A DNA stretch of 64,000 bases from Escherichia phage PhaxI. The translations under genes and the position numbers were made by a program. The notes below the pieces were generated by a model. That model was not told where the DNA came from, did not search any database, and saw only the letters and a program-made list of their open reading frames with translations. The stretch is taken from the sequence record JN673056. One strand, given 5' to 3'. Shown here piece after piece: positions 37,432 through 61,025 of the stretch. How positions within the stretch are numbered: the stretch's first letter is position 1; every line of letters starts with the position of its first letter.

Positions 37432-37439
37432 GTATTTAG
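37432..37439 (-). promoter_or_regulatory. late-promoter-like motif CTAAATAC, 28 nt upstream of gp22 start
   Basis: Minus-strand CTAAATAC; same motif recurs before gp18, gp14, gp67-like, the 1612-aa gene and a tailspike gene. Confidence 0.4.
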
Positions 37440-37450
37440 TGAGCTGAAAT

Positions 37451-38119
37451 TCAGCCCAGATGATTCAATGCTGCATCAAGGCGGCGCAGGAAATCGTCTT
37501 CAACCTGGATATTGGTTTTCACCAACTGGTCTACAACTTTCCCTTTAACATCACGAGGCATCCAAATACCCGAAGCCTCATCAAGCTGCCATTCAACAGA
37601 TTCACTCACAGCCTTAACATAACAAACTTGTCCAGAAGGACGGTCGACTGCATCAACAGCGGTGAGCATAAAGCCAGGTTGAACGTCATCATAACCGTTT
37701 ACTGACTTGGTCTCACCCAGGCCACGTGTAGACACGGCCAGATTGAAGTCTGCTTCGGCCAATGCACGTATGATTTGGCCTTTTGGTGTATTTAAAATTC
37801 GCGCCCGACCGATGGCATTAGTGCCTTCCCAGCGAAGGGATTCGGTTTTGAGTGCAGCTTCCACCAGATTAGGGAAAGGATAGTCAGGATGTGTGACTTC
37901 ACCGATTGCGCGACGATCTTGGATATACTCTTTGTCGTATGCTTCGACAGCAGGAATACCCACTTTCTGCAGATCATAGTTACGCCCGTTACGGTTGACT
38001 TGGTTACACATCACAAACGGACCTTCGATGAACATGGCCTTCCCACCAGTTGAGGTTGTGGCCTCACCGATTTGAAGATCCTTCCCTATCGCTGTGATCT
38101 CACGCAACAGTTTCATCAT
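37451..38119 (-). CDS. prohead protease (T4 gp21-like)
   Basis: Synteny (between gp68-like and gp22) and size 222 aa; not checked at motif level. Confidence 0.5.
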   Translation of the reverse strand: MMKLLREITAIGKDLQIGEATTSTGGKAMFIEGPFVMCNQVNRNGRNYDLQKVGIPAVEAYDKEYIQDRRAIGEVTHPDYPFPNLVEAALKTESLRWEGTNAIGRARILNTPKGQIIRALAEADFNLAVSTRGLGETKSVNGYDDVQPGFMLTAVDAVDRPSGQVCYVKAVSESVEWQLDEASGIWMPRDVKGKVVDQLVKTNIQVEDDFLRRLDAALNHLG

Positions 38120-38126
38120 AAACTCC

Positions 38127-38444
38127 TTACTTGTTCTTACTCAGTCCCATCATTTTGCGGAACTTCATAGCCTTTTTCTTGCGGCGCTCGATTTTACGTT
38201 GATAGCCCATTCCCATACGCTTTTTAGAGCGGAGGGCTTTGCGGTTGCCGATCTTGCGAACACGACGTTCGCTGGCGTCCATAACTTCACAACGTGAACC
38301 ATCAGCCGACAATTTGAACCCAGGGGCACATTTCAAGCGGCGGCGGCGTTTACCACGAGCGTTCACTTTATCGATGACTCGCTGCTCGTCCATACGAGAG
38401 GCCAGGAAATCAGCGAACGTGGCGATCTCTGTGATTTCCATCAT
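38127..38444 (-). CDS. basic prohead core/internal protein (gp68 position)
   Basis: Highly basic (KRRRRLK, RKKKAMKFRK); occupies T4 gene 68 position. Confidence 0.4.
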   Translation of the reverse strand: MMEITEIATFADFLASRMDEQRVIDKVNARGKRRRRLKCAPGFKLSADGSRCEVMDASERRVRKIGNRKALRSKKRMGMGYQRKIERRKKKAMKFRKMMGLSKNK

Positions 38445-38452
38445 GCATCTCC

Positions 38453-38623
38453 TTACTGGCCGTTGTTGTTTGAATTCATATCGGCTGCGATAGAATCCAG
38501 AACATATGCTGTGCCTTGGTTTAATAGTTCTTGACTACGTGCATCAAGTTCCATGTTGCATTCTGCAACAGCAGTTTCAGTGTCACCGTCAATTACTGCA
38601 CGAACGATATCAATTGCGCTCAT
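38453..38623 (-). CDS. small acidic protein (56 aa), gp67 position
   Basis: Not in ORF track (under 60 aa); ATG 38621-38623 with SD GGAGAT; MSAIDIVRAVIDGDTETAVAECNMELDARSQELLNQG... Confidence 0.4.
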   Translation of the reverse strand: MSAIDIVRAVIDGDTETAVAECNMELDARSQELLNQGTAYVLDSIAADMNSNNNGQ

Positions 38624-38650: not shown

Positions 38651-38657
38651 TATTTAG
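38651..38657 (-). promoter_or_regulatory. late-promoter-like motif CTAAATA upstream of gp67-like gene
   Basis: Minus-strand AACTAAATATAG about 28 nt upstream of ATG. Confidence 0.35.
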
Positions 38658-38664
38658 TTGAACT

Positions 38665-40347
38665 TTAAATACTATCGTCTGTTGAACCGGAGAATGGGAT
38701 AGTCTCAGGTTTAAACTTCAACGGACTAACATCTGAACCGCTATAATTGCCAGTTTCATCTGCTTGAACCTTCGGATAGAGACCTTTCTTCTTCTCTTCC
38801 GCGATCTTAGCCTGTTGTTCTTTAACTTCTTCGTCTGACATACGCAGAACATTCCGCATGACATAATCGATGGAGAATATAGAACCAACAAAAGGCTCAA
38901 CAGTGTTCAGAGAAGCCAGGCGATCATTTAATATGGCGTTTTCTTGTTGCTCACGAATATAGCTATCAGAAGTGAATTCAAACTTAATAAACGGCTTGAT
39001 TTTTTCATTCCAATCTTTTTCGTCAGTCACGCCTTTCAAAATTAATTGGCGACGTAAAAACTCCATAAAGAAATGGGAGTAACGACGACGTAACCCAGCA
39101 CAGAACTTGCTGAAACGCAGCTCTTCCTGTGTAATCTCCGCGAGGTTGGAACCCCCAATGTTAATAGATCCTTCCTCTTGGAGGCGGCTCTTAGGGATCA
39201 TTAGAGCATCATAGAGTTTTTCACGGAAATAGTTCACGTGATCCATTTCGCCCAATTGATTCCCACCCCCAACAGTCGCAATCTCTGTAGCATTCTGACC
39301 TTCGCGGCGCGGCAACCAATAATCCTCTGCAATACCCATAAGATGGGCATTACCTGTTATCTTACCAGTGGTGCGGTCATATGCGTTGCGGTTTTTGAAT
39401 TTACCCATCATCATGGTCATGTATTCTTCAGCAGATTTCTTACCGAGAGTACCGACGTCAAGATAGAATGCGCGTTTCTCAGGGGCGCGAGTGATGGCAT
39501 AAATTACTGTTGCGTCTTCAGTCGTAACCAAGTTGTTCAACGGGCGGATTGCAGGATTTAAAAGCCCTGGGACAATACCGTTAGCCAATGGTTCTTCACC
39601 ACTATCGATATAAACGATACTTTCGTCATCAAACACGAGTTCTTGTTGTGAAGGTTGGAAGTTTTGAGAAGTACCTGATTGACCAGTGAATTGGTTCCGA
39701 TTATAATTCGGATTGTAATAGTATTTCAGCGTTACAGATTCGATCGCTTCTATACCACCTTCACGCATTGCCTTTTCAACGATGTACACAGGACGAATAC
39801 AACGAGAATCCAGCATGACCAATTTCTTGATCCCGCCCTTCTTATTCGTTGGGTCAACAATCACATGATACGCTTGTCGACCATCTACATACCATTTCCG
39901 AATCTTTTGATACGCCGTATTTTCAAAATCCATCAAATGAATCACTTCTTTGAAACATTCGGTGATAGATTCTTTGACTGATTCAGAAATACCATCAACT
40001 TTGTCAAGATTGACTGTCACCGGAGTTTCGTCTTCCTCACATGTGACAACGTCATTAACAATGATGTCCACAGCTTTGCGGATTTCTGGCTGCTGGGCCA
40101 TGGACTGATATTCTTCCACAACTGTTTTAACGCTGAGAAGTTCACTCTCAACGCCAACATAGTTGTAGGTGTTTGCACCGCCCTGAAGGATTATAGAACC
40201 GTCTTGAGCATCGTCCAGAGCAACAACTGTCGCCTTGGTGAGCAACAATTCATCTTGTTTTTGGGCTAACTTATCGGTGTCGACTTTGGCATTGACTAAA
40301 CCGCCGCCACCAAACAAACCGAAGAACCCCATGCCGTATCCAGCCAT
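38665..40347 (-). CDS. portal vertex protein (T4 gp20-like)
   Basis: VIYAITRAPEKRAFYLDVG..KFKNRNAYDRTTGKITGNAHLMGIAEDYWLPRREGQNATE matches remembered T4 gp20 ([50 protein letters not shown]). Confidence 0.85.
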   Translation of the reverse strand: MAGYGMGFFGLFGGGGLVNAKVDTDKLAQKQDELLLTKATVVALDDAQDGSIILQGGANTYNYVGVESELLSVKTVVEEYQSMAQQPEIRKAVDIIVNDVVTCEEDETPVTVNLDKVDGISESVKESITECFKEVIHLMDFENTAYQKIRKWYVDGRQAYHVIVDPTNKKGGIKKLVMLDSRCIRPVYIVEKAMREGGIEAIESVTLKYYYNPNYNRNQFTGQSGTSQNFQPSQQELVFDDESIVYIDSGEEPLANGIVPGLLNPAIRPLNNLVTTEDATVIYAITRAPEKRAFYLDVGTLGKKSAEEYMTMMMGKFKNRNAYDRTTGKITGNAHLMGIAEDYWLPRREGQNATEIATVGGGNQLGEMDHVNYFREKLYDALMIPKSRLQEEGSINIGGSNLAEITQEELRFSKFCAGLRRRYSHFFMEFLRRQLILKGVTDEKDWNEKIKPFIKFEFTSDSYIREQQENAILNDRLASLNTVEPFVGSIFSIDYVMRNVLRMSDEEVKEQQAKIAEEKKKGLYPKVQADETGNYSGSDVSPLKFKPETIPFSGSTDDSI

Positions 40348-40414
40348 GATCTAAGTCCTCAACGTTTTCTTGTAATTAGTGAGGGGGAATAACATTCCCC
40401 CAGCACCGAGGACA

Positions 40415-40948
40415 TTACAAAGACTTGTCAGAAACGGCTTGGAAATAACGCAAGTCGACAGTGAACTGTGTGTAAGAGTCCATTGCCGACATATCGAGTT
40501 CCAGTTGGCCGAGGTTTTGAGGCCAGCCGCCCTGTAAAGTCCATGTCTTAGTCACGTTGTCATTCGCGTCCAGAAGTTCCATGATGATATCACGGAAATA
40601 ATCATCTGGATTCGCGCTGGCGCGGTTGTTTTCACTACCGTTGATGAATTGCTGCCACACTTCAAAAGCATTGTATGGAGCGTTGTTCACCACGTTAATG
40701 AACGTCACAGGAAGCGCTTCGAAACGACGATCCCCTGGGAACGGAAGTTCACGTCCACCCCAGGGCACCAGAATTTCGCCCAGCTGACCTGTTGGGGTGT
40801 TGGTGGTTACAGCCAGCAAGGACACGTCACGAATTGTGTCGGAACCAGCAACAAAAGAAGGAAAGTTTACAGTCACACGCCAGCGGTGTTGGCGTTGTAC
40901 GCCGCCCCCTCGTGACATGGCTGCGCGAAACTCATTGACTGTCGCCAT
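40415..40948 (-). CDS. tail tube protein (T4 gp19-like)
   Basis: Synteny between gp18 and gp20; C-terminal LQGGWPQNLGQLELD resembles T4 gp19 IKGLWPTNVGELQLDW. Confidence 0.65.
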   Translation of the reverse strand: MATVNEFRAAMSRGGGVQRQHRWRVTVNFPSFVAGSDTIRDVSLLAVTTNTPTGQLGEILVPWGGRELPFPGDRRFEALPVTFINVVNNAPYNAFEVWQQFINGSENNRASANPDDYFRDIIMELLDANDNVTKTWTLQGGWPQNLGQLELDMSAMDSYTQFTVDLRYFQAVSDKSL

Positions 40949-40978: not shown

Positions 40979-41437
40979 CTAATTAGTCGTCAATCTTTTA
41001 ATCTTCATGGAAGAAAAATCAAATCCGTGGTCAACATTGCTTAAAACGGGTTCTATTTCACACAATTCCCAACGGGGATCTATGAGAGAAACAAGACCAA
41101 TGTGTTCACCTGTGGATGTCAATTTTGCTGCAGTTTTACCCAGCATATGACTTCCATCATTACCGCCTTTATTCATGTTGTAACCCATCTCATAAGAATT
41201 ATATTGAGCGATGAGTTGCTTCTCTAATTCCCATTTATGGACTTCATCGGTCTGAGCAATTACAACGAAAGTAAATCCAGATGTTCCATACTTACGCATG
41301 GCATCATACAATTCACTTTGGACTCCATGATGAAAAGCATTCGCAAAATGCTGATCATATCTTCGTTGTGGGTTATTGGTTACACCGATGTAGACCTTTC
41401 CATTAGTTATCGTTTCAATTTTGTATGCGTATATCAT
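40979..41437 (-). CDS. GIY-YIG homing endonuclease
   Basis: MIYAYKIETITNGKVYIGVTNNPQRRYDQHF is a canonical GIY-YIG motif with the conserved Arg; inserted between gp19 and gp18. Confidence 0.7.
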   Translation of the reverse strand: MIYAYKIETITNGKVYIGVTNNPQRRYDQHFANAFHHGVQSELYDAMRKYGTSGFTFVVIAQTDEVHKWELEKQLIAQYNSYEMGYNMNKGGNDGSHMLGKTAAKLTSTGEHIGLVSLIDPRWELCEIEPVLSNVDHGFDFSSMKIKRLTTN

Positions 41438-41504
41438 TTCAAATTCACCTCTATTTTATTTAGTGTTGAACAATTTCGGGGTATTATGCTCTTGGAGGTG
41501 TTAT

Positions 41505-42293
41505 ATGATCGGTCATATCTACATGTTAACCGTCGGTAAAAAGAAGTATATCGGACAAACTAGAAACGGCGTTGAGTATCGAGTAAATGAACATTTGGGT
41601 GAAGCAAGAAGAGGGAATAAAACTATCCTCTACAACTATATCCGAAAGTATGGAATTACCAGCCAAGAAATATTGCTAGAATGCCATGTCGATGACCTAA
41701 ACTCTAACGAAATTGAACTCATAAAATTGCATAAGACTCATATCTCTGAAGGTGGGCTGAATATCAGCCGTGGCGGTCAGATAGACATATCTGGTATGGC
41801 CGCAGCATATGATATAGAAAGCAGGGAATTCATCGGAATGAAACCAGTTAATGATGCTGGTTGGAATGTTTTGTTTGTGGCAAAACAATACGGTTTAGTA
41901 CATAAAGAAGAAAGTAAAACAAAAATGTCCCAATCCCAAGCGGTCGTGTGGACAGAAGAAAAGAAAGAATTGCAATCCCGGCGAATTACAAAGGCATACG
42001 AGAATCCAAAATGTAAAGAAAATCTTCGTATCGCTATGAACAAAGTGCGTATGAATCCTGAATTTCAAGAGAAAATAAATCGATCTCTCGGGAGATGGTT
42101 TACACTTCTTTCACCAGCTGGTGAAGAATATGAAATCAAGAATCTAAACAAATTTTGTCAAGAACAATGTTTGTGTATAGAATCTTTCAACATGGCATTA
42201 GCTGGAAGGATGCAGAATCCCATCCCTAAACCTTACAGGAAATCTTCATTGAAGAGAACAAATACCACAGGATGGCATATCAGTAGGAAATAA
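41505..42293 (+). CDS. GIY-YIG homing endonuclease (Seg-like), plus-strand
   Basis: ATG 41505 with SD GGAGGTG; HIYMLTVGKKKYIGQTRNGVEYRVNEH canonical GIY-YIG; divergent from adjacent minus-strand GIY-YIG gene. Confidence 0.7.
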   Translation: MIGHIYMLTVGKKKYIGQTRNGVEYRVNEHLGEARRGNKTILYNYIRKYGITSQEILLECHVDDLNSNEIELIKLHKTHISEGGLNISRGGQIDISGMAAAYDIESREFIGMKPVNDAGWNVLFVAKQYGLVHKEESKTKMSQSQAVVWTEEKKELQSRRITKAYENPKCKENLRIAMNKVRMNPEFQEKINRSLGRWFTLLSPAGEEYEIKNLNKFCQEQCLCIESFNMALAGRMQNPIPKPYRKSSLKRTNTTGWHISRK

Positions 42294-42316
42294 AAACCCC
42301 GCCGAAGCGGGGTTGT
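42293..42316. terminator. bidirectional terminator (CCCCGC-CGAA-GCGGGG) shared by plus-strand HEG and minus-strand gp18
   Basis: A-run before and T-rich run after stem on both strands. Confidence 0.65.
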
Positions 42317-42320
42317 TGTC

Positions 42321-44216
42321 TTAGGATGCAGCAACGATGCCGCCGCCTGATTCGATCTCGGAGAATTCCATATCTGGTCGAACTGCAGCAAAATCCAAAT
42401 ATACCCAATTAATGCTGTACTCAGGCTTCAACCAAATGCCTGCAACCATGGTGTTGGCTGCGATAACATCAGCAGTGTTGTTATCTTCGTCACACTTGAC
42501 TTTACCATCGTAGATCGCACCCATATTTGCCAGTTGGCGAATATAAGGACGAACAGCGTTGCTGAACAGGCTGCGAGTGAACGCATCATTGTTCTCACCA
42601 AGGTAATATTTGGCGATTGCAGCGATGTTCTGTTCTGCCATAATGAACAAGCCACGAACATTGATACGATCGAAAGCAGACGGACGAGTCAGGCCAGTTT
42701 TGTCACCATACAACACGATACCTTCATTGGAGAAGGTTACGATGCTGTTAATCTGGTTGCGGTACAACACGGCACGTTCATCGGAAGACGCAGACCACGC
42801 CATTCGATTGTAGTTGTTGTATTTGCCACGGTTGTGGAACGCAGGAGATTTGTAGATACCCGCGATTTCAATGCTTCGCGCCCAAACACCTGCGGTGCCA
42901 CCACAAGCCGGAATCCAACGCATTTTGTCGTTGTACTTGTCGTACACATATGCCCAGTTATCATCCATGAAGAAATAAGAAGAGTCGCGAACAAGGCTTT
43001 CACGCCAAGCAACGACATCATCCATTTCACGACCACGGTTGCCAACAACCGTATCACGGAGCGGGGATACGAAAGATACCGTATCTTTTCGCTCAGTAGA
43101 TAAGTCGATCAATGCTTGTTGCTCAATCAGTTCTTCACAGTACGCAAATACTGGCTTCGCATCATATGCTTCAGCATTGTTCAAGACTTGGATAGCTGCC
43201 ACGCGGTTGATGTTATAATCGTCTACGCCGCCTTCTAATTCAACAACACCTGCGGACAGAGCGGTAGCGAAGGTGTACACCCAATTTGATGTATCATTGA
43301 TGACATCTTTGAAGTACGCATTCGCGCCATCGGACTTTTTGGAACCCTGTGTGTTCTGCATGAGTTCGTATTTTTCGATAATAGAACCAGATGCGCCAAC
43401 AGTGGTAATCACGGCGGTTGCAGTCAGCCCCTTATCATCTGGAACAATAGCAGTAACTGTCTGGGGACCAATAGCTTTATGGGTCACGATGACAGTGTTG
43501 GACTTCACGACAACAGAAGAATAAACACTTGTCAGGGAAGTTAGTGCTGTACCGATTTTGGTTGCCAAATCGGCTGGAGTATCAGTATCCAGATATGCGA
43601 TATCTTCACCTGCCACACTGATGGTGCCAGCAGCAGTAGCCGTACCAGAAACGGAGATACGGTCAACCTGACCGACCGCGCCAGCAGAGTCGGTAATGCG
43701 ACCAACTTTGTCTACGACAACTACATGGAATTCACCAGACTGAGGTGCGTATGCAAAGTTATTACGGAATTCCCAAGTTGAGAATCCAGCAGCATCACAA
43801 ACATTGATAGCAATATCATTACCCAGGGAACCTGGATAACGACCAGTCCAAGTGATGGACGCCGAAGGACTTGCTGTTTCAAAATCCAGTTTGTTTTTGA
43901 TCGCAATCGCTGTCTGACCTTTGGTAACAGAGTTCTTGGCCAGAGGACCAACAACACGGGTCACCCATGCCATAGAGCTGTAAGACAAAAAGTCCGCGAT
44001 TACGAGAAAATCGGTCGCAGTACTGTCGTTGGGTTTGAAGAATTTCTTCACCAAACCTGTCTCACCACCAGTCACCAGCACTGGAAGTTCAACTTCACCC
44101 CATTGAAATTTGCCGACGGTCGCGCCCTGAACAACAACGGACGGGGACGTCTGAAGCGTGGCATCACGCTCAGTCCACTGAACGGACGGCGCAACGCTGA
44201 AGCTTTGAGTTGCCAT
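42321..44216 (-). CDS. tail sheath protein (T4 gp18-like)
   Basis: N-terminus MATQSF..GKFQWGEVELP matches T4 gp18 GKFQWGPAFQ; start set to ATG 44214-44216 with SD AAGGAA (track starts at TTG 44249). Confidence 0.85.
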   Translation of the reverse strand: MATQSFSVAPSVQWTERDATLQTSPSVVVQGATVGKFQWGEVELPVLVTGGETGLVKKFFKPNDSTATDFLVIADFLSYSSMAWVTRVVGPLAKNSVTKGQTAIAIKNKLDFETASPSASITWTGRYPGSLGNDIAINVCDAAGFSTWEFRNNFAYAPQSGEFHVVVVDKVGRITDSAGAVGQVDRISVSGTATAAGTISVAGEDIAYLDTDTPADLATKIGTALTSLTSVYSSVVVKSNTVIVTHKAIGPQTVTAIVPDDKGLTATAVITTVGASGSIIEKYELMQNTQGSKKSDGANAYFKDVINDTSNWVYTFATALSAGVVELEGGVDDYNINRVAAIQVLNNAEAYDAKPVFAYCEELIEQQALIDLSTERKDTVSFVSPLRDTVVGNRGREMDDVVAWRESLVRDSSYFFMDDNWAYVYDKYNDKMRWIPACGGTAGVWARSIEIAGIYKSPAFHNRGKYNNYNRMAWSASSDERAVLYRNQINSIVTFSNEGIVLYGDKTGLTRPSAFDRINVRGLFIMAEQNIAAIAKYYLGENNDAFTRSLFSNAVRPYIRQLANMGAIYDGKVKCDEDNNTADVIAANTMVAGIWLKPEYSINWVYLDFAAVRPDMEFSEIESGGGIVAAS

Positions 44217-44258
44217 AATATCATTCCTTCTCGGTAGAGTTTCGCTCAATTTGAAAGA

Positions 44259-44265
44259 TATTTAG
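44259..44265 (-). promoter_or_regulatory. late-promoter-like motif CTAAATA between terminase stop and gp18 start
   Basis: Minus-strand CACTAAATATC about 40 nt upstream of gp18 ATG. Confidence 0.4.
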
Positions 44266-44268
44266 TGA

Positions 44269-48485: not shown

Positions 48486-48509
48486 AATATTTTCCTCAAG
48501 ATTTAAATA

Positions 48510-48516
48510 TATTTAG
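48510..48516 (-). promoter_or_regulatory. late-promoter-like motif CTAAATA upstream of gp14-position gene
   Basis: Minus-strand AACTAAATATAT about 25 nt upstream of ATG 48485. Confidence 0.35.
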
Positions 48517-48543
48517 TTGAATTTGTTTTTAAGGTGAATCAAT

Positions 48544-49254: not shown

Positions 49255-49316
49255 CCATGACTTTACCTCAATTTTGAAGGTATTTAGTCAATCATTAATT
49301 CTTTTGAGAATGATAA

Positions 49317-50923: not shown

Positions 50924-53900
50924 TCATGCCAGAGCAATAAGACGGAAGTCTTTGAATGAAGGAGGAGCAACTCGGTTCCCCCTTACAAGTGCTCTGACTT
51001 TCAGTCCAACGAACGGATTGTTGCTTGCCACAGTCTTATCATACTCATATTCAAAGAATGTAGAACCGTCGTTAACCAGAGGCGAAGTTGGAGTAACGTC
51101 TTCCCAATCCACGCTATCCATCTCTTGACCTGCTCGGAGCAGTTTTACCTGCACCTTCATGGAGGATTGAGAAGGCAGCATCGCCCCGAAGAACAACTTC
51201 ACAGTAGAACACGGATTATCAAATCCGATGTCCTTTGTCACGTATTTGAAGACATCTTCAAATGGATCCACACCGTATGAGTTGAAGATTACGCTCAGGT
51301 CATCGCCATCAATCATTGGAGCAGTGTACACGTTGTTTTCACTACGCGTCATGGTGGCTCGGATTTGGAAATCCCCGACCTGACGATAGATACCTTCAGT
51401 CGGCAATGCCACGTCAGTGTCAGTTTCAAACTCAGCCCAATCAGACATAGAATTTGAAGTGGCATCGCGATAACGGTATTCCAATTTCAGAATTGAACCT
51501 TCCAGAGCCGAATTGGTAACGCTGGCATAGAACATATCAACCAGATAATTGCCCAAGAAAGAAGCATTATCTCCACCGATTTGTCCATTGCTGTCTGCTG
51601 CCGTACCGACGTCAATCTTGAATGAAGTATAGCTCGCATCTGTCACAGTAAACGTTTTGTTAAGTTGTTCAGGAGTAAAGCCACAACCGCCTGTCAATTC
51701 AGAAAGAGTGACATTGTTCCCAGCAACCAAACCATGACCAGGTGCAAACACAGTCACAACAGAAGACCCGCTTACGCAGTTCAGAGTATTCAATCCCAAC
51801 GGACGTTGTTTTGGCCCGAGCTTCGGATCAAATGTTACAACGTTCTGCCCCGCAGCGAAGTTACAACGATATATGCGGAATTTCATATCAGCCATTTGGT
51901 TTGGAGACCATGTAGAACCGTTTGAAGAAGTGAAGAACACCCCTGTATACGGTTGTTTGGCGATATATTCGTTGGACAGAAGGTTTTTCTTGCCCATTTC
52001 CGCGATATACGCGTTGTAATCCTGAGTATTCGCCAACAAAACGATAGCAAACTCAGTCGATGCTTGCAGATACACCGGATAATCAAAGGTGAACTTCGTA
52101 CCGCCGGAAGAGTCTGTAGAGATCGTCACTTCAGACGGGTTCAAAGTTTTACGAGTAATGACTGTATGAGAAGGTAAGCCATTCTCCATCTCGCGAATTT
52201 CCAGAGTGATCGGAACATCACGTGACTTGGTAGAGAAGAATACTTCCACGCCTTCAATATACTCGCCGCCATTCTTAGTCGCTACCATAAACGATTGGGC
52301 AATCGGATCACGCCATTGGTCGACCACAACTTCAGAAGTGCTGGTTTCGGTGCGAGTACTAGCAGTGTAACCCAGGACACGAGTGTTGACAAAGGTCTTT
52401 TGAATACCTTGTTTCTTACCGAAAGATTTATGAACAATTTCTGCATTGGTCAGTGTATCATCCGCAGATTTACTGTCAACAGGGCTATCCGTTAAGCGGA
52501 ACACGTTGTCGCCTGTGTTGAACTTGATTGTATCGTTCTGTGGAACGCGGAATATACCTTTAACAGCACCATTGGCATCAGTGGTGATTGGGTCACCGAA
52601 ATTACCACCATTCGGTTTGCAATACAGATTGACGTCACGACCAGAGAAGAACGCATACATACGAGTGAAAGGTCGCAGCCCAGATGCGTCGAAAGAAATA
52701 TCGATCTCGCGCATGTATGGGATAACTTGCGTCTCCACAATCTGTTCACCAGTCATGGTCGTGGTTGTTTTGTCCGTGTATGTATATGCGGTGACATCAC
52801 GGGCAGAAACAGTCGTGCGGTAAGGATATCCCCCCCACACACCACCAGCGCCATGCGGTTCCCAAACACGATCAGAAACAGAAACAGTATGCCATGTTCC
52901 GTACACTGAACCTTCTTGTACAGTACCACGGGTGTTGATCGTTTCATTGATAATACGCGGCGCAACATAATAGTTTTCGAACCAGTAGTCTGTGGTCGGG
53001 TTAATCTTCAAGAAACCTTCCCAATTGAATACTGCATACGGGTTAACGTTGATCGTCGTCGTCGCATATTCTTGGTTCACTGAGATTTCAGGCGTGTAAT
53101 TACAAACCACCATCCCATCCATCACTTTGTTCCAGCCAACAGGAGTCATGTCAACAACGTTCTGTTGTACAAACGGGCGTAGACGTCCGTTTTCGGTATC
53201 GATAGAACCCATCCAATCTTCAGACAAGTCATCAATCAACCGGAAGTCTTTGAACGGATCAGCTGCAATACCATTTTTGAAACGGGGATTGCCCGTGATG
53301 GGGTCGAACACTTGCTGTGTCATCGCTGAAGATTCCAACTGTGACAGAGAGGTATAGTATTCAACATTGGAAATACGGGTTTCCAGTTTACCGATATCGC
53401 GCATTGTATACCGACGATTATCAATAGTTCGAATTTGGATATCATCAATATTCGGCGTATACGGCGGGATCAACAGTTCATACAAACGCATGGCGTTCGC
53501 TGGGATTGCTGGAGAAGCCAGGTTGTTAGAACTGATGCCACGAGCCACTCCGAACACGCCGTTGTCTGCCAGATAAATCGCGTCGATGCGCGGCAGATAA
53601 TATTCTGTGTCCAGAATAACTGCAGTGTTTGGACGAACCATATCTGTGTCAGAAGTTCCGTTGGTGATTTTCGGACGGAAATCCAAACTATCTGCCAGGC
53701 CGTACACCGCGCCTGATGTAGAAGATGTATAATTCGGGATATCTTTATAATCCATCGAAGTATACGAATCAGCAGAGAAGAAATCACCGGAACTGTGGGC
53801 GAAGTATTGATACACCACTGTATACGTCCCTGAGATTGCTCCAGCGCTGGATAACAAGTTAGACTTGTAATACCCTGCATCACGCTGTCCGCCGTCTAGG

Positions 53901-55762
53901 ACGAAGCTGGAGGTCACGTCTGCGCCAGTATCGTTTTTTACCGACACCAATTTCCAACCATCGTGATTCGCCAAAGGACGGCTAGTCTGCGAGGTGAACG
54001 TCACTGTTTCAGTTGTTTCAGTGATGGTCTTCGTTTTGATTGTGGCCGTGGTACGAATCATCAGCGCCAGCAAATTGATTGACTGGTTAGCATTACCACT
54101 GCCTAGAGAAATCTGCAGCGCCGAACCGACCGGAGAACCAGTCAAAGACAAAGAACCAGAGATATCGAACTGCGCTTCAGAACCATCAGATTTCGCTGCA
54201 GAGTACAACGAAAATTCTGGGGAAAAACTATATCCCAATGGAGCAGAAATAGAACCCGCGCCGCTGTTGTCCAACGTCACTTTATACGTTCTGAGAACAG
54301 TGTAGTTGATATCCACGGAGCCAGTTGGTGCTAAAGTCTTGACACCGAATACCGGAAGAGAGAAGATCAGATCTATCATAGAACTCTGGTTAAACTGATT
54401 GGATTCCAGTTCAGCAGAGAACATGGTGATACCGCTTTCTTCGTAAGACACTTTGGTGATAGTGGACGCGTCCCCAGTCACAACTAAATCACGCATGTAC
54501 AGGCGGAATTCAGTTGAATTGCGTTCAGCGGATATACACAACGCCGTGGCTTGAGTAGCGCCGGATGCATTCAATAACTTGTATCGCACAGTGCGAGATA
54601 TTACTGGAACACCTTTGGAGTTCTTGGTGACCAGATAATTCCCTGTAGCAACTGCGACAGGCGTGTTATTCAGGACATCGGTATCCCGTGCCTTGTCAAC
54701 GATCACCAACTCTTCCCCGACGTTTTCGATACGACGACCGCGAACATAGGAAATACCTGGTTTCATTACAGACACGAATTTACTTTCGTCGCCGCCATCA
54801 GCAGCATTGAATACACCACCATTGTTATTGACTTTCAGGTGTTCGCGGATGTCGATCTGGTGCGTTGAAACGTTGTAATCGCCGTTGGTTTCATACGTCC
54901 GTTGGGCCAACGTGTCTTCCAGAATATTATAGGTGGACTGAGTCACCATAGACTGGATTTTACCATCACGAACTTTGGCCAGTTCAACAAAGTCTTCAAC
55001 CACAGCATCATAATCAAATCGAGATAAGACCAGATCTATTCGAAGACGATGAGCGCCTGGGGCTTTGGAGTTAATCGTTCCCTGAGCATTTGAATAAAGG
55101 GATTCGTCTTCAGATTCAGTCACGATGGTTTCAGTGACTTTAAATCCGACGCGGTGGGAAGACGTGTTCGAAGTTTTATCAACGATAAGAGTTGCGTCAT
55201 CAACGTCTAGGAACATCCCACGAATGAAGTAAACGCCTTTCGTCATACGAGCAACGATAGAACCAGTCACAGCAGCCGCGATACCATAACCAATACGAAT
55301 GAAATTATCATTCACGTCGTAAGTCTGGAAATACAGATTATCGTTAACATGGAATCCGTCAGCATTACCCGCTTCAGTCATCTCAAGGATAGCCAGCATT
55401 GTATCAGGAGCAGACAGATCACGTTCAAGAGACAACACACGCGCTTTGGCGTTATTGTCTTTCCCCAAAACGTAGAGTTCAGAAATACCTTCCAGATCAG
55501 TGAATTCAGTACCACCAGCCAAAGTGAATTTCAAAGAGACTGCGGCATTGGTAATCGTCAGACCACCAGGGATAACCATAGAACCATCTTTGAACAAATG
55601 GTTGCCCAGTTTTTCAATTTGATCCTGAAGAATAGTCTGCATCTGGTTCAGTTCGCGAGTCTGAACCTTGATAGGCATCGGACGAAAAAGAATCCGTGAA
55701 AAACGTTTCCCAGGATTCCAGTCATCCCAATACGGGCGACGGTTTAAATTTGTAGATTGCAT
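50924..55762 (-). CDS. very large virion structural protein (1612 aa; putative baseplate/tail fibre component)
   Basis: Single uninterrupted ORF, ATG 55760-55762; location between tailspike cluster and neck genes; Thr/Ser/Gly/Asn-rich as in fibrous proteins; function inferred from context only. Confidence 0.5.
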   Translation of the reverse strand: MQSTNLNRRPYWDDWNPGKRFSRILFRPMPIKVQTRELNQMQTILQDQIEKLGNHLFKDGSMVIPGGLTITNAAVSLKFTLAGGTEFTDLEGISELYVLGKDNNAKARVLSLERDLSAPDTMLAILEMTEAGNADGFHVNDNLYFQTYDVNDNFIRIGYGIAAAVTGSIVARMTKGVYFIRGMFLDVDDATLIVDKTSNTSSHRVGFKVTETIVTESEDESLYSNAQGTINSKAPGAHRLRIDLVLSRFDYDAVVEDFVELAKVRDGKIQSMVTQSTYNILEDTLAQRTYETNGDYNVSTHQIDIREHLKVNNNGGVFNAADGGDESKFVSVMKPGISYVRGRRIENVGEELVIVDKARDTDVLNNTPVAVATGNYLVTKNSKGVPVISRTVRYKLLNASGATQATALCISAERNSTEFRLYMRDLVVTGDASTITKVSYEESGITMFSAELESNQFNQSSMIDLIFSLPVFGVKTLAPTGSVDINYTVLRTYKVTLDNSGAGSISAPLGYSFSPEFSLYSAAKSDGSEAQFDISGSLSLTGSPVGSALQISLGSGNANQSINLLALMIRTTATIKTKTITETTETVTFTSQTSRPLANHDGWKLVSVKNDTGADVTSSFVLDGGQRDAGYYKSNLLSSAGAISGTYTVVYQYFAHSSGDFFSADSYTSMDYKDIPNYTSSTSGAVYGLADSLDFRPKITNGTSDTDMVRPNTAVILDTEYYLPRIDAIYLADNGVFGVARGISSNNLASPAIPANAMRLYELLIPPYTPNIDDIQIRTIDNRRYTMRDIGKLETRISNVEYYTSLSQLESSAMTQQVFDPITGNPRFKNGIAADPFKDFRLIDDLSEDWMGSIDTENGRLRPFVQQNVVDMTPVGWNKVMDGMVVCNYTPEISVNQEYATTTINVNPYAVFNWEGFLKINPTTDYWFENYYVAPRIINETINTRGTVQEGSVYGTWHTVSVSDRVWEPHGAGGVWGGYPYRTTVSARDVTAYTYTDKTTTTMTGEQIVETQVIPYMREIDISFDASGLRPFTRMYAFFSGRDVNLYCKPNGGNFGDPITTDANGAVKGIFRVPQNDTIKFNTGDNVFRLTDSPVDSKSADDTLTNAEIVHKSFGKKQGIQKTFVNTRVLGYTASTRTETSTSEVVVDQWRDPIAQSFMVATKNGGEYIEGVEVFFSTKSRDVPITLEIREMENGLPSHTVITRKTLNPSEVTISTDSSGGTKFTFDYPVYLQASTEFAIVLLANTQDYNAYIAEMGKKNLLSNEYIAKQPYTGVFFTSSNGSTWSPNQMADMKFRIYRCNFAAGQNVVTFDPKLGPKQRPLGLNTLNCVSGSSVVTVFAPGHGLVAGNNVTLSELTGGCGFTPEQLNKTFTVTDASYTSFKIDVGTAADSNGQIGGDNASFLGNYLVDMFYASVTNSALEGSILKLEYRYRDATSNSMSDWAEFETDTDVALPTEGIYRQVGDFQIRATMTRSENNVYTAPMIDGDDLSVIFNSYGVDPFEDVFKYVTKDIGFDNPCSTVKLFFGAMLPSQSSMKVQVKLLRAGQEMDSVDWEDVTPTSPLVNDGSTFFEYEYDKTVASNNPFVGLKVRALVRGNRVAPPSFKDFRLIALA

Positions 55763-55795: not shown

Positions 55796-55802
55796 TATTT
55801 AG
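55796..55802 (-). promoter_or_regulatory. late-promoter-like motif CTAAATA (also TATAAAAT nearby) upstream of 1612-aa gene
   Basis: Minus-strand TACTAAATATCTCTATAAAATGG 20-40 nt upstream of ATG. Confidence 0.4.
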
Positions 55803-55919: not shown

Positions 55920-56543
55920 TTAATCAGTATACGCCATCAAGAACATAATAAGCTCATCATAGCGTACTCCGTACCTTACTCCTGCTGGTTTAACTATTAC
56001 AACTTCTTCTAACGTTTCTGGATTAATGATTATTTCAGAAGACGCTTCCCATTCGTCCTTGCACCAGAATGCGTAATCCTCTGGTTTAAGTCCGTGCTTT
56101 GTCAGGATAGAACCAACAGTTTGCGCACCAACGCCGAAGTGGACTCGTGCAGACTCTTCTCCCTTAATTTCTATAGCGTCAGTAAACTTATAGCGAATAA
56201 TATTATTGCGAATTTCATTAGCCGCTTCCCTTTCCGCACTCTCGTTTGTTGCTGGGGTTTTTACCTTCAGTGTTTCATCGGAGGTGCTTATTGTTCCCGT
56301 TGCAGCATAGACAACAGACCATCTATGTGATGTATATCCTAATACGGTCGTATTGTCTGTATCAGGCATAAATCCATTGTATCCACCAATCTTAAGGTCG
56401 CCATTTGGGTTTCCGGATGACGTTTTACCATCATAACTTCTCAGAGTTACTCCTTTCGTTCCGGCAGTGGTATCTACCAAGATACCAGCGTTGGTAGAAC
56501 CTAGAAGCTGAATTCCACTATTATCATTACGCAAATCCTGCAC
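55920..56543 (-). CDS. hypothetical protein (207 aa), possible C-terminal fragment or accessory of tailspike
   Basis: GTG start in track; frame is open about 50 codons further upstream; lies directly downstream of a short tailspike ORF. Confidence 0.35.
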   Translation of the reverse strand: MQDLRNDNSGIQLLGSTNAGILVDTTAGTKGVTLRSYDGKTSSGNPNGDLKIGGYNGFMPDTDNTTVLGYTSHRWSVVYAATGTISTSDETLKVKTPATNESAEREAANEIRNNIIRYKFTDAIEIKGEESARVHFGVGAQTVGSILTKHGLKPEDYAFWCKDEWEASSEIIINPETLEEVVIVKPAGVRYGVRYDELIMFLMAYTD

Positions 56544-56738
56544 AGGTGCTTCAAGTACAGTTGCTGTAAATTTCCATTTTGTATCGGAATAAAATTCAGC
56601 AGGTGAAGTATCATCACTTTGTATGATTACCGCTTGTTTGCCAGATTCTCTTCTACGACACCAGCAATATTTTTCTGGGTTGGATCCCAGTTACTAGAGA
56701 CAAGCACCCCATCAAATTCTACTAATGATTCAAAAGGT

Positions 56739-58163
56739 TTACCTACTGCACGCGTTGGGGTTTGGGACAAAAATACCCCAGTTCCAATCAAAGAAATTGT
56801 TATACGTACCAACATTATCATCTATCTGATACCCACGAGTGCATAATTCGCCAAAATAACCATAGAATCGCAAGTTACCAGCAACTTGGGTGTCACTGCT
56901 CACCCTTTTAACAACACGTACCGCACAAGGTACATCAGCAGGCCAAGTGCCTTGTGTGATGTTCTCTGAATGTCCACCGAATACGCGAAGGCTATCTGTA
57001 CTTTCAATCCAGAAGCTACAGTTACCGGTTGCATGGTGCGGGTCGTATATATGAATGCGGGTATTATTATTATCGCCACTCTCTGATCGTTCGAAGAAGA
57101 AACCACAGTCAACACGTTCGAAGTTAGGATTCATAATGGAATGGTAATAAGCACCACTATTGCTACCACCTACAGTTGGGCCAGGTTTGAACTTGATACC
57201 AATCTTAACACCACGTGCTCGTGGGTTCTCCATTACACAGAACTGCTGAGATACACGCACTGTTGTTTGAGTTTCATTTTCTGGTGCAATAGCATAGGCG
57301 ATAACGTCAGTGTGGTTACTTGGGTTAATTACTGTTGGATTTATAACGTGGCAGAAATCATGACTCATGCGAATACAGGTAATGTTATTGGCACCTGCCA
57401 CAATCACTGTCCCAGTGAAATCCAGATAGCGAGTTGACATTACATCCTGGGTATATGAACCGTCAAATTTCATTACGAGGCTATTCGTAATGAGATACTT
57501 AGCCCCAGGTCTGCCAACCAACTTACCGAAAGGTATCCCCTCTAGCCACACTAATGCTTCCAACATTGAGGCAGTGTCATTAGTAACCCCATCTCCAATC
57601 GCACCAAACTCTTCAAATGATTTTATTGTAGTAACCCGATGGGCAATTTGGTCAATTGTTGGACCATACTTTGTTAGGTCAGTTATAAGAGACGTAGCCC
57701 CAACACTAACCCAAGCACCCACGCCAATCCCGCCAGATTCTTCTGGTGTTGAACTGGCAGGTACACTTTTAGGCAATGCCCCATCCCAACGGTATCTACC
57801 ATCTGTAAAAGTAACCAATTCATTCTTGGTATTAACAGTTACACCAGTAGAGAATGAACCAGGTAGAGTTACATACTCTTCACGAGTAACAGCTAATGCA
57901 CCAAGGTCTACATTACCTCCAGAATGAACCAATACACCAGCAGTATTAAGACTGACGGCAGTAGTACCAGCACCAAGGTCAGTAGGTAAGGAATAAGCTC
58001 TCTGTGTTACTTTATCATAGATGACTTTATAGCCACTTAATACAGCACCGATAGAGAAGTAAACAACCTCAGATTGCTTAACTCCAAAGTGACGAGCTAC
58101 TGCTTGCTTGTTGGTTAAGATTCCAGTTGAACCTTTTCCACCTTGTGAGAACAGTTCGTTCAT
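56739..58163 (-). CDS. tailspike protein, short (474 aa) with conserved N-terminal module and start of beta-helix
   Basis: N-terminal 140 aa near-identical to residues 275-412 of tailspike at 61088-64000; GAIGDGVTNDTASMLEAL is typical of pectate-lyase-like beta-helix entry. Confidence 0.6.
   Translation of the reverse strand: MNELFSQGGKGSTGILTNKQAVARHFGVKQSEVVYFSIGAVLSGYKVIYDKVTQRAYSLPTDLGAGTTAVSLNTAGVLVHSGGNVDLGALAVTREEYVTLPGSFSTGVTVNTKNELVTFTDGRYRWDGALPKSVPASSTPEESGGIGVGAWVSVGATSLITDLTKYGPTIDQIAHRVTTIKSFEEFGAIGDGVTNDTASMLEALVWLEGIPFGKLVGRPGAKYLITNSLVMKFDGSYTQDVMSTRYLDFTGTVIVAGANNITCIRMSHDFCHVINPTVINPSNHTDVIAYAIAPENETQTTVRVSQQFCVMENPRARGVKIGIKFKPGPTVGGSNSGAYYHSIMNPNFERVDCGFFFERSESGDNNNTRIHIYDPHHATGNCSFWIESTDSLRVFGGHSENITQGTWPADVPCAVRVVKRVSSDTQVAGNLRFYGYFGELCTRGYQIDDNVGTYNNFFDWNWGIFVPNPNACSR
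57690..58100 (-). repeat. tailspike N-terminal module, DNA copy A (paralogous to 62750-63160)
   Basis: Encodes SEVVYFSIGAVLSGYKVIYDKVTQRAY...YRWDGALPKSV..GGIGVGAWVSVG; roughly 80 percent nucleotide identity by eye to copy B. Confidence 0.7.
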
Positions 58164-58213
58164 ACATACCTCTTTGTTTTTCTAGTGATATCCCTCCGAA
58201 GAGGGGTATATTT

Positions 58214-60997
58214 TTAAATAGAAGAATCCAATATACGGTAACTAATTAACTTAGTAGGGTCTACAGGATTAATCAGGTTGTAGTACCGTGAAGATACATA
58301 ATCATTCTCAGAAGAGAACATACCAACATACACTTTAGCACCTACACCAGAACAGGCATCCCCACCAGCATTGCTATCCGAGAAGAATGTTAATGAGGAA
58401 GTTAATCCGAATATAGAATTAAATGGTACGGCTAAATAAGCGCCTCGGAATGACCGTCTGATTCTCTTACCCGTCTGAATATTAAGAATACTCCACCAGA
58501 AATATCCAGGTTTAGCACCAATAGCTATATGATATGGTACACCACTTTGTAGTTTAAGGTCGTTAGGTAAATCCCCAGATAAAATTTGGGTTGTACCATC
58601 GCCCCCCAATAGCAAAGCAATTGTTTGTTTTCCAGAAGCGTCTATAACTAATTGAAGATGAAGACTGTTGGATGTATCACTAAACCCTGAACCAATGGCC
58701 ATGAAGTTAAATACTTCAGCTCCAGATATGGTAGGTACTACAACAGCAGCCATGGTAATACCTTCTGGACCTGCTGTTCTTGAATACAGTAATTTATCTT
58801 TGTTGGCTTGTGATAGTCTCAGACCATTTACTTGCCCTACAGAAGATGGGACACTTACATAAACAGGTGTAGTGCTAACACCATCAAATGTAGGGGTCTC
58901 GTTCATGGTTTGCAAACCAGTCTTGGAATAATTAACCAATCCGTTAATGCTCAGGTCGGAATTGGTGGGGTTGATAATATTGTTATCACCAATAAAGTTA
59001 ATGCCCATATAACCAGTCTCAACCACACCATTAATGGTGACACTACAATCATTAGACAGGAACTGAAAATTGCCTGCACTAGAGTTAGCACCTGAACCAC
59101 TATTCGCGGCATAATTGAGTCCTACGAATCCGTTGATAACTGCATCGCTTTTGTTAAATACGATGTTGTAGAAAGTGTTGTTAGCATTGATGCCGTTACG
59201 ATTGGTGTTCAATCCGTTCATGGAAATTGAATATGAATCGCTAATCTCAATGCCATTCCCGCCACAATCTTGTACCTCAATACCATTAATAACCATATTC
59301 TGGCTGTTATTAATAGTAATGCCTGGGAACTGTCCTACTGTACCATAAGGTTGCCAGTTAGCCCAAATGAATTTACCGCCCAATAAATACGAACCATTAC
59401 CACAACCATCAAGAACCAGACATTGTTTACCGCAGGTATTAACCTGGATATTTGTCCAAGTCCAATCAGTAGTAGCACAACGGACACCCACCTGATTGAT
59501 GTGGTTGACTAAAAGAGAATCTGTAGTAACACTAAAGTTACCACTATCAATATTTAACCCATATTCATCAAAACCTGCTATATGGACCTTAGAAATACAC
59601 AAGTCGCGTCTTGGGTCTGCGGTAGTGTGGAACGGATAATCGGCTGAGAGACCTGAAGGAGTTTCTACATAGATACCTGTTGTGCCCGCAGTAAATGGCA
59701 TGCCTTGTTGTGCACCTGTGCCATATACCCCAAAGGCGTCTAATACAATAAGGGAGCATGTATCTTTTATGGTAATACAATTCCCAGTAGCAGAAGGCAA
59801 CTGATGCAACCTTGAGTAATGTAATCCAGACCCATAAATAGACGACGTATTATATTTTAACTGGATATTGCTAACGTAATGTGCATCAGTTAATTGTGTG
59901 GCCTTACCACTATCCACACAAGATTGTACTGGAATAGTATCATCATTAGAACCACCCAAAGCACCAAACATGAATGGGTTAACTCTATCAGCATTAACAC
60001 GTAACCATGCCGCGCCGCCAACAGTTTTGATCACAGTACCGTTATTATCAGTCTTTCCTGTACCATCAATTAACGCACGGAATACCCCTCCACCAAGAAG
60101 AGTACCCGCAGTGTGTTGCTTAAGAATAATGCGTTGTCCATCCATAGTGGGTTCAGTATTCCTGAGATCAGCAACAGAATGGCATTCTCCAATATACTTG
60201 GCACCATCATTGCGCCCCAGAGTGTTTATCACATTAATAAATGAATCCTCTAAAGGCAACAAATCAACCTGCACATCACCTGGGTTGTAATTCAATTTCC
60301 CAGCAGATACAGAAGAAATGACAGAACCATCAGGAATGGTTGGTAAACCATAACTGGTTTGCGTCGCTATATCATAAACAACTTTCTTCCCATCCAACAA
60401 AGATATGGTGTCCGTACTAACGATGACTTCAGAGTCTTTTACATTAGCAGAACGGGCGATTTCTTGAATACTTCGGTCAAACGCCGGACTGATATTCGGT
60501 TGTTTAACAGACATTTCAGCGACTACCCAAACGCCTGCAGTCAGTGCAGTTTGCAAAGACACTTTCCCTGTCGTGCTGTTATAGGAATATTCAATTTCGG
60601 GTGTTTTGTACTCGCCACCGATATAAAGAGATTGGACACCATAGGATGTGAAATCAGGAGTGAACTCGGTTTCACCTCCCACGGCCTGAAATTTGTATAT
60701 GCGGATACCTTTGGCTGTATCTTCTGGCGAAAGAATTTTATCGAATAAGCAATACACAACATCGCCTTTGGACAATGCGCGCCCGAGATTCAACGTATTT
60801 CCTTCGATTTCAAAGTTGTCTAACGGAACTTGCATACCACCGTTGATTGTGACTACGCCAGTGACAGGATAGAACGGCAAGGAAAGGAAAGTTTCTCCAC
60901 CAACATTTGATTTATACGTGAAAGGAATCTGGTGGGGAGCTGTGATTACGCCGCCGAATAATTCTTCTACATTTCTGGTCATTTGAAAATACCCCAT
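58214..60997 (-). CDS. tailspike protein (927 aa) with beta-helix and C-terminal lectin-like domain
   Basis: Contains weaker copy of shared module (ARSANVKDSEVIVSTD..VVYDIATQTSYGLP), Gly/Asn-rich repetitive beta-helix region, C-terminal domain LHLQLVIDASGKQTIALLLGGDG. Confidence 0.6.
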   Translation of the reverse strand: MGYFQMTRNVEELFGGVITAPHQIPFTYKSNVGGETFLSLPFYPVTGVVTINGGMQVPLDNFEIEGNTLNLGRALSKGDVVYCLFDKILSPEDTAKGIRIYKFQAVGGETEFTPDFTSYGVQSLYIGGEYKTPEIEYSYNSTTGKVSLQTALTAGVWVVAEMSVKQPNISPAFDRSIQEIARSANVKDSEVIVSTDTISLLDGKKVVYDIATQTSYGLPTIPDGSVISSVSAGKLNYNPGDVQVDLLPLEDSFINVINTLGRNDGAKYIGECHSVADLRNTEPTMDGQRIILKQHTAGTLLGGGVFRALIDGTGKTDNNGTVIKTVGGAAWLRVNADRVNPFMFGALGGSNDDTIPVQSCVDSGKATQLTDAHYVSNIQLKYNTSSIYGSGLHYSRLHQLPSATGNCITIKDTCSLIVLDAFGVYGTGAQQGMPFTAGTTGIYVETPSGLSADYPFHTTADPRRDLCISKVHIAGFDEYGLNIDSGNFSVTTDSLLVNHINQVGVRCATTDWTWTNIQVNTCGKQCLVLDGCGNGSYLLGGKFIWANWQPYGTVGQFPGITINNSQNMVINGIEVQDCGGNGIEISDSYSISMNGLNTNRNGINANNTFYNIVFNKSDAVINGFVGLNYAANSGSGANSSAGNFQFLSNDCSVTINGVVETGYMGINFIGDNNIINPTNSDLSINGLVNYSKTGLQTMNETPTFDGVSTTPVYVSVPSSVGQVNGLRLSQANKDKLLYSRTAGPEGITMAAVVVPTISGAEVFNFMAIGSGFSDTSNSLHLQLVIDASGKQTIALLLGGDGTTQILSGDLPNDLKLQSGVPYHIAIGAKPGYFWWSILNIQTGKRIRRSFRGAYLAVPFNSIFGLTSSLTFFSDSNAGGDACSGVGAKVYVGMFSSENDYVSSRYYNLINPVDPTKLISYRILDSSI

Positions 60998-61017
60998 AAA
61001 GGATTTGCCAATATGGG

Positions 61018-61025
61018 GTATTTAG
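61018..61025 (-). promoter_or_regulatory. late-promoter-like motif CTAAATAC upstream of 927-aa tailspike gene
   Basis: Minus-strand CAGCCTAAATACCCCAT about 25 nt upstream of ATG 60997. Confidence 0.4.

Follow-up and report, generated by a model that had tools for sequence, protein, structure and literature searches.

In phage T4, late promoters carry TATAAATA at positions −13 to −6, and in phage Aeh1 they use CTAAATA, beginning at position −12, where the C is a strong determinant (Nolan et al. 2006, PMC1524935). The subject of this study is the same heptamer, CTAAATA, as it occurs in a stretch of 64,000 nucleotides (nt) of DNA from Escherichia phage PhaxI (sequence record JN673056), here called the window. 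It lies there upstream of head, tail and tailspike genes, and is considered as the candidate core of the late promoters of the phage.

For phages in the ViI family, Kutter et al. (2011) stated that the late-promoter sequence still awaited identification (PMC3184105). The query used by Anany et al. (2011) was TATAAATA with one mismatch permitted (PMC3121705), and in the LIMEstone paper the T4 consensus led to 33 predicted late promoters (PMC3296691). A study of the Ackermannviridae phage EspM4VN gave CTAAATAcCcc as one of “two unique regulatory motifs”, not calling it a late promoter, and assigned the second motif, TTCAAT-N14-TATAAT, to another promoter class (PMC7283392). An ISME J paper makes no mention of the motif. 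The heptamer is already known: it has been described in ViI-like phages, and in Aeh1 it has been described as a late promoter; late-promoter function would be the obvious reading of the ViI-like motif as well. The motif pair is said to come from the “Viunalikevirus” paper of Adriaenssens et al. in Arch Virol, 2012.

By its sequence, the window is a genome segment of a Kuttervirus (Ackermannviridae, ViI-like). A megablast search with its 35-47 kilobase (kb) portion matched 284 phage records; Escherichia phage EP75 ranked first, its 95.9% identity extending across the entire query, and Det7, SJ2 and other ViI-like phages (Ackermannviridae, Kuttervirus) came next. The gene map was made by moving the EP75 annotation to the window by BLAST, with each start codon checked. 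It holds 73 genes, nearly all on the minus strand, and intergenic DNA makes up 5.6%. The module for head, neck, tail and tailspikes occupies the right half (35-64 kb), and the left half carries replication and recombination genes together with a gp55-type sigma factor and a gp45-type clamp.

Placement and enrichment of CTAAATA

CTAAATA occurs 11 times in the window, ten of them on the minus (coding) strand. Nine of the minus-strand copies are intergenic, and eight of these end 19-42 nt before a start codon. The copies and their variants are as follows; distances run from the end of the motif to the start codon of the gene or open reading frame (ORF) named, and lengths of products are in amino acids (aa).

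37433-37439, minus strand: CTAAATA, 28 nt before the ATG of gp22 (prohead core; 36565-37404, minus)
38651-38657, minus strand: CTAAATA, 27 nt before the ATG of the gp67-like ORF (56 aa; 38453-38623, minus)
44259-44265, minus strand: CTAAATA, 42 nt before the ATG of gp18 (tail sheath; 42321-44216, minus)
48510-48516, minus strand: CTAAATA, 24 nt before the ATG of gp14 (47844-48485, minus)
55796-55802, minus strand: CTAAATA, 33 nt before the ATG of the 1612-aa gene (DUF4815 protein; 50924-55762, minus)
61019-61025, minus strand: CTAAATACCCC, 21 nt (first ATG) or 36 nt (second ATG) before the 927-aa tailspike gene (58214-60997, minus)
41457-41463, minus strand: CTAAATA, 19 nt before the start of the GIY-YIG homing endonuclease gene (40979-41437, minus)
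28671-28677, minus strand: CTAAATA, 26 nt before the start of the UvsW-like helicase gene (27142-28644, minus)
49281-49287, minus strand: orphan CTAAATA, intergenic; a ribosome-binding site and a remnant of 7 codons (MATSKYF and a stop) come after it
36514-36520, minus strand: variant CTAAGTA, 40 nt before gp23 (major capsid protein; 35151-36473, minus), directly after a terminator hairpin
40373-40379, minus strand: variant CTAATTA, 25 nt before the portal gene gp20 (38665-40347, minus), after a hairpin
40980-40986, minus strand: variant CTAATTA, 31 nt before gp19 (tail tube; 40415-40948, minus)
31849-31855, minus strand: variant TTAAATAcccccaaaattgggggtattttt, 23 nt before a 242-aa ORF (31097-31825, minus), with a hairpin as at the tailspike site
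32054-32061, minus strand: T4-type TATAAATA, 27 nt before a 56-aa ORF (31856-32026, minus), the sole copy in the window
58432, plus strand: intragenic CTAAATA, inside the 927-aa tailspike gene
61702, minus strand: intragenic CTAAATA, inside the next tailspike gene

An earlier note on this DNA had reported the heptamer upstream of gp22, the gp67-like gene, gp18, gp14, the 1612-aa gene and the 927-aa tailspike gene. All six sites are present on the minus strand, 21-42 nt before the start, and the variants that it gave for the portal gene and gp23 are found at 40373 (CTAATTA) and 36514 (CTAAGTA). It did not list the sites at 41457, 49281 and 28671 (the last outside the range that it covered), the variant at 40980, or the intragenic copies at 58432 and 61702.

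An A directly precedes the motif in 7 of 9 sites, and C or T directly follows it in 8 of 9. At 28671, the TAA within the heptamer (28674-28676) is the stop codon of the upstream exonuclease gene. A terminator-like hairpin precedes several sites, namely those of gp23, the portal gene and the 1612-aa gene; at the last of these, what is read as the hairpin is a G+C-rich inverted repeat plus T run that precedes the heptamer at 55796.

Taken as a raw count, the 11 copies are unremarkable (7.3 ± 2.4 expected; 10 of 100 shuffles reach 11), as they would be if the heptamer had no function and reflected chance, the A/T richness of intergenic DNA, or duplication of cassettes. The orphan at 49281 is clearly a duplication product. 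Its region (49255-49316) holds the motif, a ribosome-binding site and then ATGGCTACTTC, and aligns with the promoter and gene start of gp14 (48486-48543) at ~77% column identity over ~105 nt; the orphan and gp14 copies flank a cassette of plus-strand endonuclease and small ORF (48544-49529). Judged from this alignment, the orphan is a duplicated and since diverged form of the promoter and start of gp14, lying beyond the inserted cassette. If active, it would direct transcription antisense through the endonuclease gene into gp14.

Given that the whole-window count is non-significant, the CTAAATA signal shows only once position and strand are considered. With dinucleotide-preserving shuffles of the intergenic segments alone as the null, the 9 copies in 4.3 kb compare with 1.21 expected (Poisson p = 5e-6), and none of 2000 shuffles reached 9. 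All nine lie on the sense strand of the downstream gene, and the flanks of separate sites are unrelated. The density of the heptamer is 2.08 per kb in intergenic DNA and 0.034 per kb in coding DNA, a difference of ~60-fold. The earlier note had named equal frequency in coding regions, or on the non-template strand, as grounds for abandoning its proposal; the heptamer shows neither.

The earlier note had named motif enrichment upstream of structural genes as a check, and enrichment upstream of genes is evident. When all 16384 7-mers were scanned, with no prior assumptions, in the 60 nt upstream of starts on the sense strand, CTAAATA ranked first in the window (8/11, p = 1e-10). It was again the top 7-mer in the complete EP75 genome (18/27, p = 2.8e-20), above the Shine-Dalgarno words. 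In the window it precedes 7 of 23 structural-side genes and 1 of 48 replication-side genes (Fisher p = 0.0012), the “late” class being inferred from gene function. The EP75 genes downstream of the heptamer include gp6, gp48, gp14, gp18, gp22, three tailspikes and the 1612-aa protein, as well as the UvsW-like helicase and a RuvC-like resolvase. One-mismatch variants are enriched upstream of genes too, in both the window (17/148) and EP75 (40/337), the main ones being ATAAATA, TTAAATA, CTAATTA and CTAAGTA; in EP75, ATAAATA (8/16) and TATAAATA (4/5) are likewise enriched there. One EP75 copy of ATAAATA, before a “virion structural” gene, corresponds to TGAAATA in the window, and this site, not being conserved, was left uncounted.

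Conservation across genera

The orthologous head and tail module was compared between the window and Cba120, Menlow (Taipeivirus), MK-13 (Agtrevirus) and JA15 (Limestonevirus), and further with phiMAM1 (Miltonvirus), phiEa2809 (Nezavisimistyvirus) and Vibrio phage D504. The heptamer is conserved across Kuttervirus and all of these lineages. Before gp18, CTAAATA is exact in 8 of 8 lineages, even as identity over the 45 nt upstream falls to 53-62% in distant ones; before gp22, it is exact in 7 of 8 and reads CTAAGTA in Vibrio D504. For the two genes together, the 45-nt upstream identity is 53-80% in three distant lineages. The gp67-like site is exact in five of the seven lineages in which the ORF is annotated (window, Cba120, Menlow, phiMAM1 and Vibrio D504); in Agtrevirus and Limestonevirus it reads CTAAGTA. 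In phiMAM1 and phiEa2809, the exact heptamer is found at all six structural junctions. The site before the UvsW-like helicase gene is invariant in five sequences from four genera. Conservation of the heptamer while the flanks diverge, together with the intergenic shuffle test, effectively refutes the explanation by chance or by a functionless repeat.

The non-consensus sites of the window were followed in the same way. The position of CTAAGTA before gp23 holds canonical CTAAATA in phiMAM1 and phiEa2809, and that of CTAATTA before the portal gene holds it in phiMAM1, phiEa2809 and Vibrio D504; the CTAATTA position before gp19 holds CTAAATAgaattgt in phiMAM1 and CTAAATAgatccag in phiEa2809. Given that distant genera have canonical CTAAATA at the same positions, the window variants are orthologous sites and not coincidences.

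In the four closer genera (Kuttervirus, Taipeivirus, Agtrevirus and Limestonevirus), the promoter and leader segments of gp23 (36474-36564), gp18 (44217-44268) and gp22 (37405-37450) are 93-98% identical, and the first 300 nt of the three coding sequences are 76-89% identical. The comparison hints that these leaders may be under extra constraint. The heptamer before the homing endonuclease gene is present in the window, EP75 and Menlow and absent in Cba120. At the same locus, the tail sheath and GIY-YIG endonuclease genes are separated by a plus-strand 262-aa ORF (41505-42293), which is missing in Cba120, and the Cba120 alignment of the 41438-42320 region covers just 89% of the query.

The gp55-family sigma factor and the late-promoter reading

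Two proteins of the T4 late transcription machinery have homologues in the window.

4084-4875, minus strand: gp55-family late sigma factor, 263 aa (PHROG 234)
25756-26424, minus strand: gp45-type sliding clamp (PHROG 223, E = 1.5e-65; Pfam gp45-slide_C below its cutoff)

The sigma factor, whose presence the earlier note had recognized, matches almost the full length of the PHROG 234 profile (“late sigma transcription factor”; E = 1.6e-53); T4 gp55 matches the same PHROG (E = 2.9e-69), and tblastn links it to cyanophage gp55 genes at ~27% identity. Direct comparison with T4 gp55 by BLASTP gave 18% identity (E = 0.005), and searches of Pfam, NCBIfam and PDB sequences gave no match. The protein has a C-terminal extension that is not aligned to T4 gp55. 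A homologue of the third factor, gp33, was found only in EP75 (PHROG 254, E = 4e-23), outside the stretch that matches the window.

The anatomy of the motif was taken from a profile of 18 EP75 sites, in which the motif ends 19-42 nt before the ATG (median 28). No −35-like partner is conserved upstream of the heptamer in these sites: the information content is at most ~0.4 bit at each position from −25 to −1 relative to the motif. The profile shows a weak A directly 5′ of the heptamer, a weak preference for C or T at +7 to +10 (the four bases after it), and an A-rich peak 5-7 nt 3′ of the motif, where a T4-type +1 would fall.

These features bear on the possibility that CTAAATA is a −10 element for the host sigma-70 polymerase, or for some early or middle factor, and not for gp55. 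The A/T-rich TAAATA is loosely like a −10 hexamer, and early and middle control in the ViI group is unclear according to Kutter et al. (PMC3184105). However, TATAAT is matched at only 3 of 6 positions, and with no −35 partner, the pattern of −35, 16-18 nt spacer and −10 is absent at CTAAATA sites. Moreover, sigma-70-like sites are not enriched in the structural region at 35-50 kb (33 versus 26.8 ± 6.7, in a consensus scan that was in itself uninformative), the heptamer is nearly absent from the replication and early side, and the literature gives TTCAAT-N14-TATAAT for the other promoter class. The form TTCAAT-N14-TAnnnT has 4 matches in the window against 1.1 expected, two of them in promoter position, counts too small to carry a conclusion. 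Recognition by sigma-70 or an early or middle factor is very improbable on this evidence.

The sites resemble T4 late promoters in having one A/T-rich element (−13 to −6), in lacking a −35 element or other conserved upstream partner, and in standing before late structural genes, here upstream of and in sense with virion and assembly genes. The heptamer is identical to the T4 element at 6 of 7 positions, and homologues of gp55 and gp45 (in the window) and gp33 (in EP75) are encoded. Unlike T4, the window motif has C and not A at −12 and lacks a conserved T at −13, TATAAATA itself is found just once, and the sigma factor is distant in identity, with its extra C-terminal region. The earlier note's description of the motif as similar to, yet distinct from, the T4 late promoter is therefore accurate. 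The heptamer of Aeh1 is identical and is found likewise upstream of late-gene orthologues. Aeh1 is a Straboviridae phage, however, and its gp55 is 22% identical to that of the window and 43% identical to that of T4. Given that Aeh1 gp55 is nearer to T4 than to the window, the C at −12 was not simply inherited with a common sigma lineage.

The placement of the motif, its strand bias, enrichment upstream of structural genes and conservation across genera, together with the gp55 and gp45 homologues, make it highly likely that CTAAATA is the core of the gp55-dependent late promoters of this phage, as the earlier note had proposed. We infer that RNA synthesis starts at the heptamer, late in infection and in dependence on gp55. 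The single −10-type element would correspond to positions −12 to −6 of T4 TATAAATA, with C instead of A at −12, and would be recognized by the host RNA polymerase core carrying the phage gp55-family sigma factor, with no need of a −35 element. The gp33 protein and the gp45 sliding clamp would assist, with clamp-dependent activation as in T4. The start of transcription would fall ~6 nt past the last A, so that head, neck, tail and tailspike genes and a few DNA-repair genes would have 5′ leaders of ~13-36 nt. Position 5 of the heptamer would tolerate G or T (as at gp23, the portal gene and gp19), and position 1 would tolerate A or T.

Several points weigh against this interpretation. The literature searched shows no start-site or timing data for any Ackermannviridae phage. 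The gp55 homologue is very remote from its T4 counterpart and is identified as such only through its PHROG profile and its cyanophage links. The sites of gp23, the portal gene and gp19 carry non-consensus variants, and the highest expression of any late gene would be expected for gp23. A homing endonuclease gene lies downstream of one site, another site is the orphan at 49281, and two exact copies of the heptamer are intragenic. In addition, a modified thymidine has been reported in the DNA of the ViI group (PMC3184105).

One column of a gp55 alignment may relate to the C at −12. In six sequences, a tiny and partly non-independent sample, the column at about R97 of the window protein is Arg in the window, Aeromonas phiA8-29, Vibrio D503 and Aeh1, Lys in T4 and Gln in Syn9. 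The surrounding residues ..LRY.. are common to the first four, T4 having ..IKG.. and Syn9 ..IQY... 

Predicted hairpins, neighbouring features and probable transcription units

A strong hairpin is predicted at three sites, 28671, 61019 and the 31849 variant. Its 5′ arm is made up of the end of the motif and the C-run after it. The 5′ arm, ATAcCCC, overlaps the motif, and the 3′ arm is a Shine-Dalgarno-like GGGG(T). The predicted folding energies (dG) are −14 to −19 kcal/mol, with z from −4 to −7.

28635-28680: hairpin at the minus-strand site 28671 (UvsW-like helicase); the other arm is a GGGGG ribosome-binding site
60980-61030: hairpin at the minus-strand site 61019 (tailspike); 3′ arm GGGGTAT, dG −19.2, z −6.0, and −4.5 from the predicted +1
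31826-31855: hairpin at the minus-strand site 31849 (242-aa ORF); dG −16.6, z −6.8, and 0.0 from the predicted +1; terminator-like as well

According to the predicted folding, RNA that starts at the predicted +1 loses the hairpin at all three sites. By an energy test, 5 of 18 EP75 sites have a motif-dependent hairpin, compared with 24 of 189 control genes, and two more EP75 sites appear to form one if the annotated ATG is moved downstream. The paralogous hairpins have a common ATAcCCC/GGGGTAT base and distal stems that are different yet complementary. Five sequences, from four genera, fold into the UvsW hairpin, with one compensatory pair in this small sample.

These structures raise the possibility that the motif acts in RNA, as a 5′-leader element for mRNA processing, stability or translation or as a hairpin arm, with no promoter role. 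The pairing of the motif's 3′ end with the GGGG(T) arm, the proportion of EP75 sites with motif-dependent hairpins and the recurrence of the UvsW hairpin would all fit. On the other hand, no significant structure is predicted at the gp22, gp67-like, gp14, gp18, 1612-aa and homing endonuclease sites, and the distance from motif to ATG varies over 19-42 nt. The heptamer is conserved and its pairing partner is not, with only the single compensatory pair seen, and the match to late promoters published for Aeh1 and of the T4 type agrees with a signal in DNA. The promoter reading can accommodate the hairpin, which need not be an alternative to it, and a role solely in RNA is very improbable.

A late promoter within a hairpin would have a parallel in T4, where the late promoters of e, soc and I-TevI reportedly lie inside hairpins that sequester the ribosome-binding site, in work credited to McPheeters (1986), Macdonald (1984) and Gott (1988). 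For these T4 genes, only mRNA initiated at the late promoter is reportedly translatable. At 28671, 61019 and 31849, the predicted start likewise lies inside a hairpin that holds the Shine-Dalgarno sequence. In read-through RNA, such a hairpin would bury the Shine-Dalgarno sequence or terminate transcription, and late RNA starting inside it would skip the hairpin. Unlike those of T4, the window hairpins are predicted, some of the subclass also look like terminators, and covariation support is minimal.

The same structures may account for the longer published motif. CTAAATAcCcc shares its heptamer and its phage family with the window sites, but cCcc is found in full at only 1 of 9, with a C-rich form at a second, and it coincides there with the hairpin 5′ arm and may not be a general promoter feature. 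A full CCCC is found in the window only at 61019; in EP75, three sites plus near-matches have it, all within the hairpin subclass. The cCcc tail may be the 5′ arm of a conserved ATAcCCC...GGGGTAT hairpin, a structural feature of the subclass and not a promoter determinant. A joint proposal, that the C at −12 is read by the Arg of LRY in gp55 and that the cCcc tail is the arm of a hairpin that buries the ribosome-binding site, is possible but, taken as a whole, doubtful.

The arrangement of the genes suggests how the sites might be grouped. There is no intergenic space before the gp68-like gene, gp21, gp15, terS and terL, and these genes have no motif, which fits operons headed by the gp67-like and gp14 sites. 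The site at 38651 probably drives the packed run of gp67-like, gp68-like and gp21 genes, and that at 48510 probably drives gp14, gp15, terS and terL.

Three further features of the window were observed. In-frame stop codons near 56739-56691 interrupt a tailspike gene at 55923-58181 (minus strand), so that it consists of an N-terminal ORF of 474 aa and one of 207 aa with matches to tailspike C-termini; SS3, SS9 and SeKF_64 (96% identical) have a single tail-fibre or tail protein feature annotated across the same interval, and the broken gene is either a pseudogene or a sequence error. Beside gp23, at 34206-35053 (minus strand), a homing endonuclease gene is frameshifted relative to the intact 281-aa gene of EP75, giving pieces of 132 and 196 aa in different frames. 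Upstream of a 154-aa ORF, at 33335-33459 (minus strand), a ~22-nt tandem unit, TTCAATAAACGGGGTTTACTTC, occurs in two to three copies, the last partly inverted so as to form a hairpin. This repeat may be related to the other published motif of the group, TTCAAT-N14-TATAAT.

Understanding of the family is unchanged by these results, since the heptamer has already been published and is an ordinary feature for the family. They do show that a real regulatory signal can be recovered by reading the sequence without tools. If the Arg of LRY does read the C at −12, it would offer a single-residue handle on gp55 promoter specificity. If the hairpin reading is true, the tailspike, UvsW-like and a few other genes would be translated only from late-promoter mRNAs. 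The map of sites gives the probable late transcription units for this Kuttervirus segment, with the gp67-like, gp68-like and gp21 genes as one unit, gp14 through terL as another, and a site of its own for each of gp22, gp23, the portal gene, gp19, gp18, the 1612-aa gene, each tailspike gene and uvsW. Such a map is useful for annotating and engineering therapeutic and biocontrol phages.

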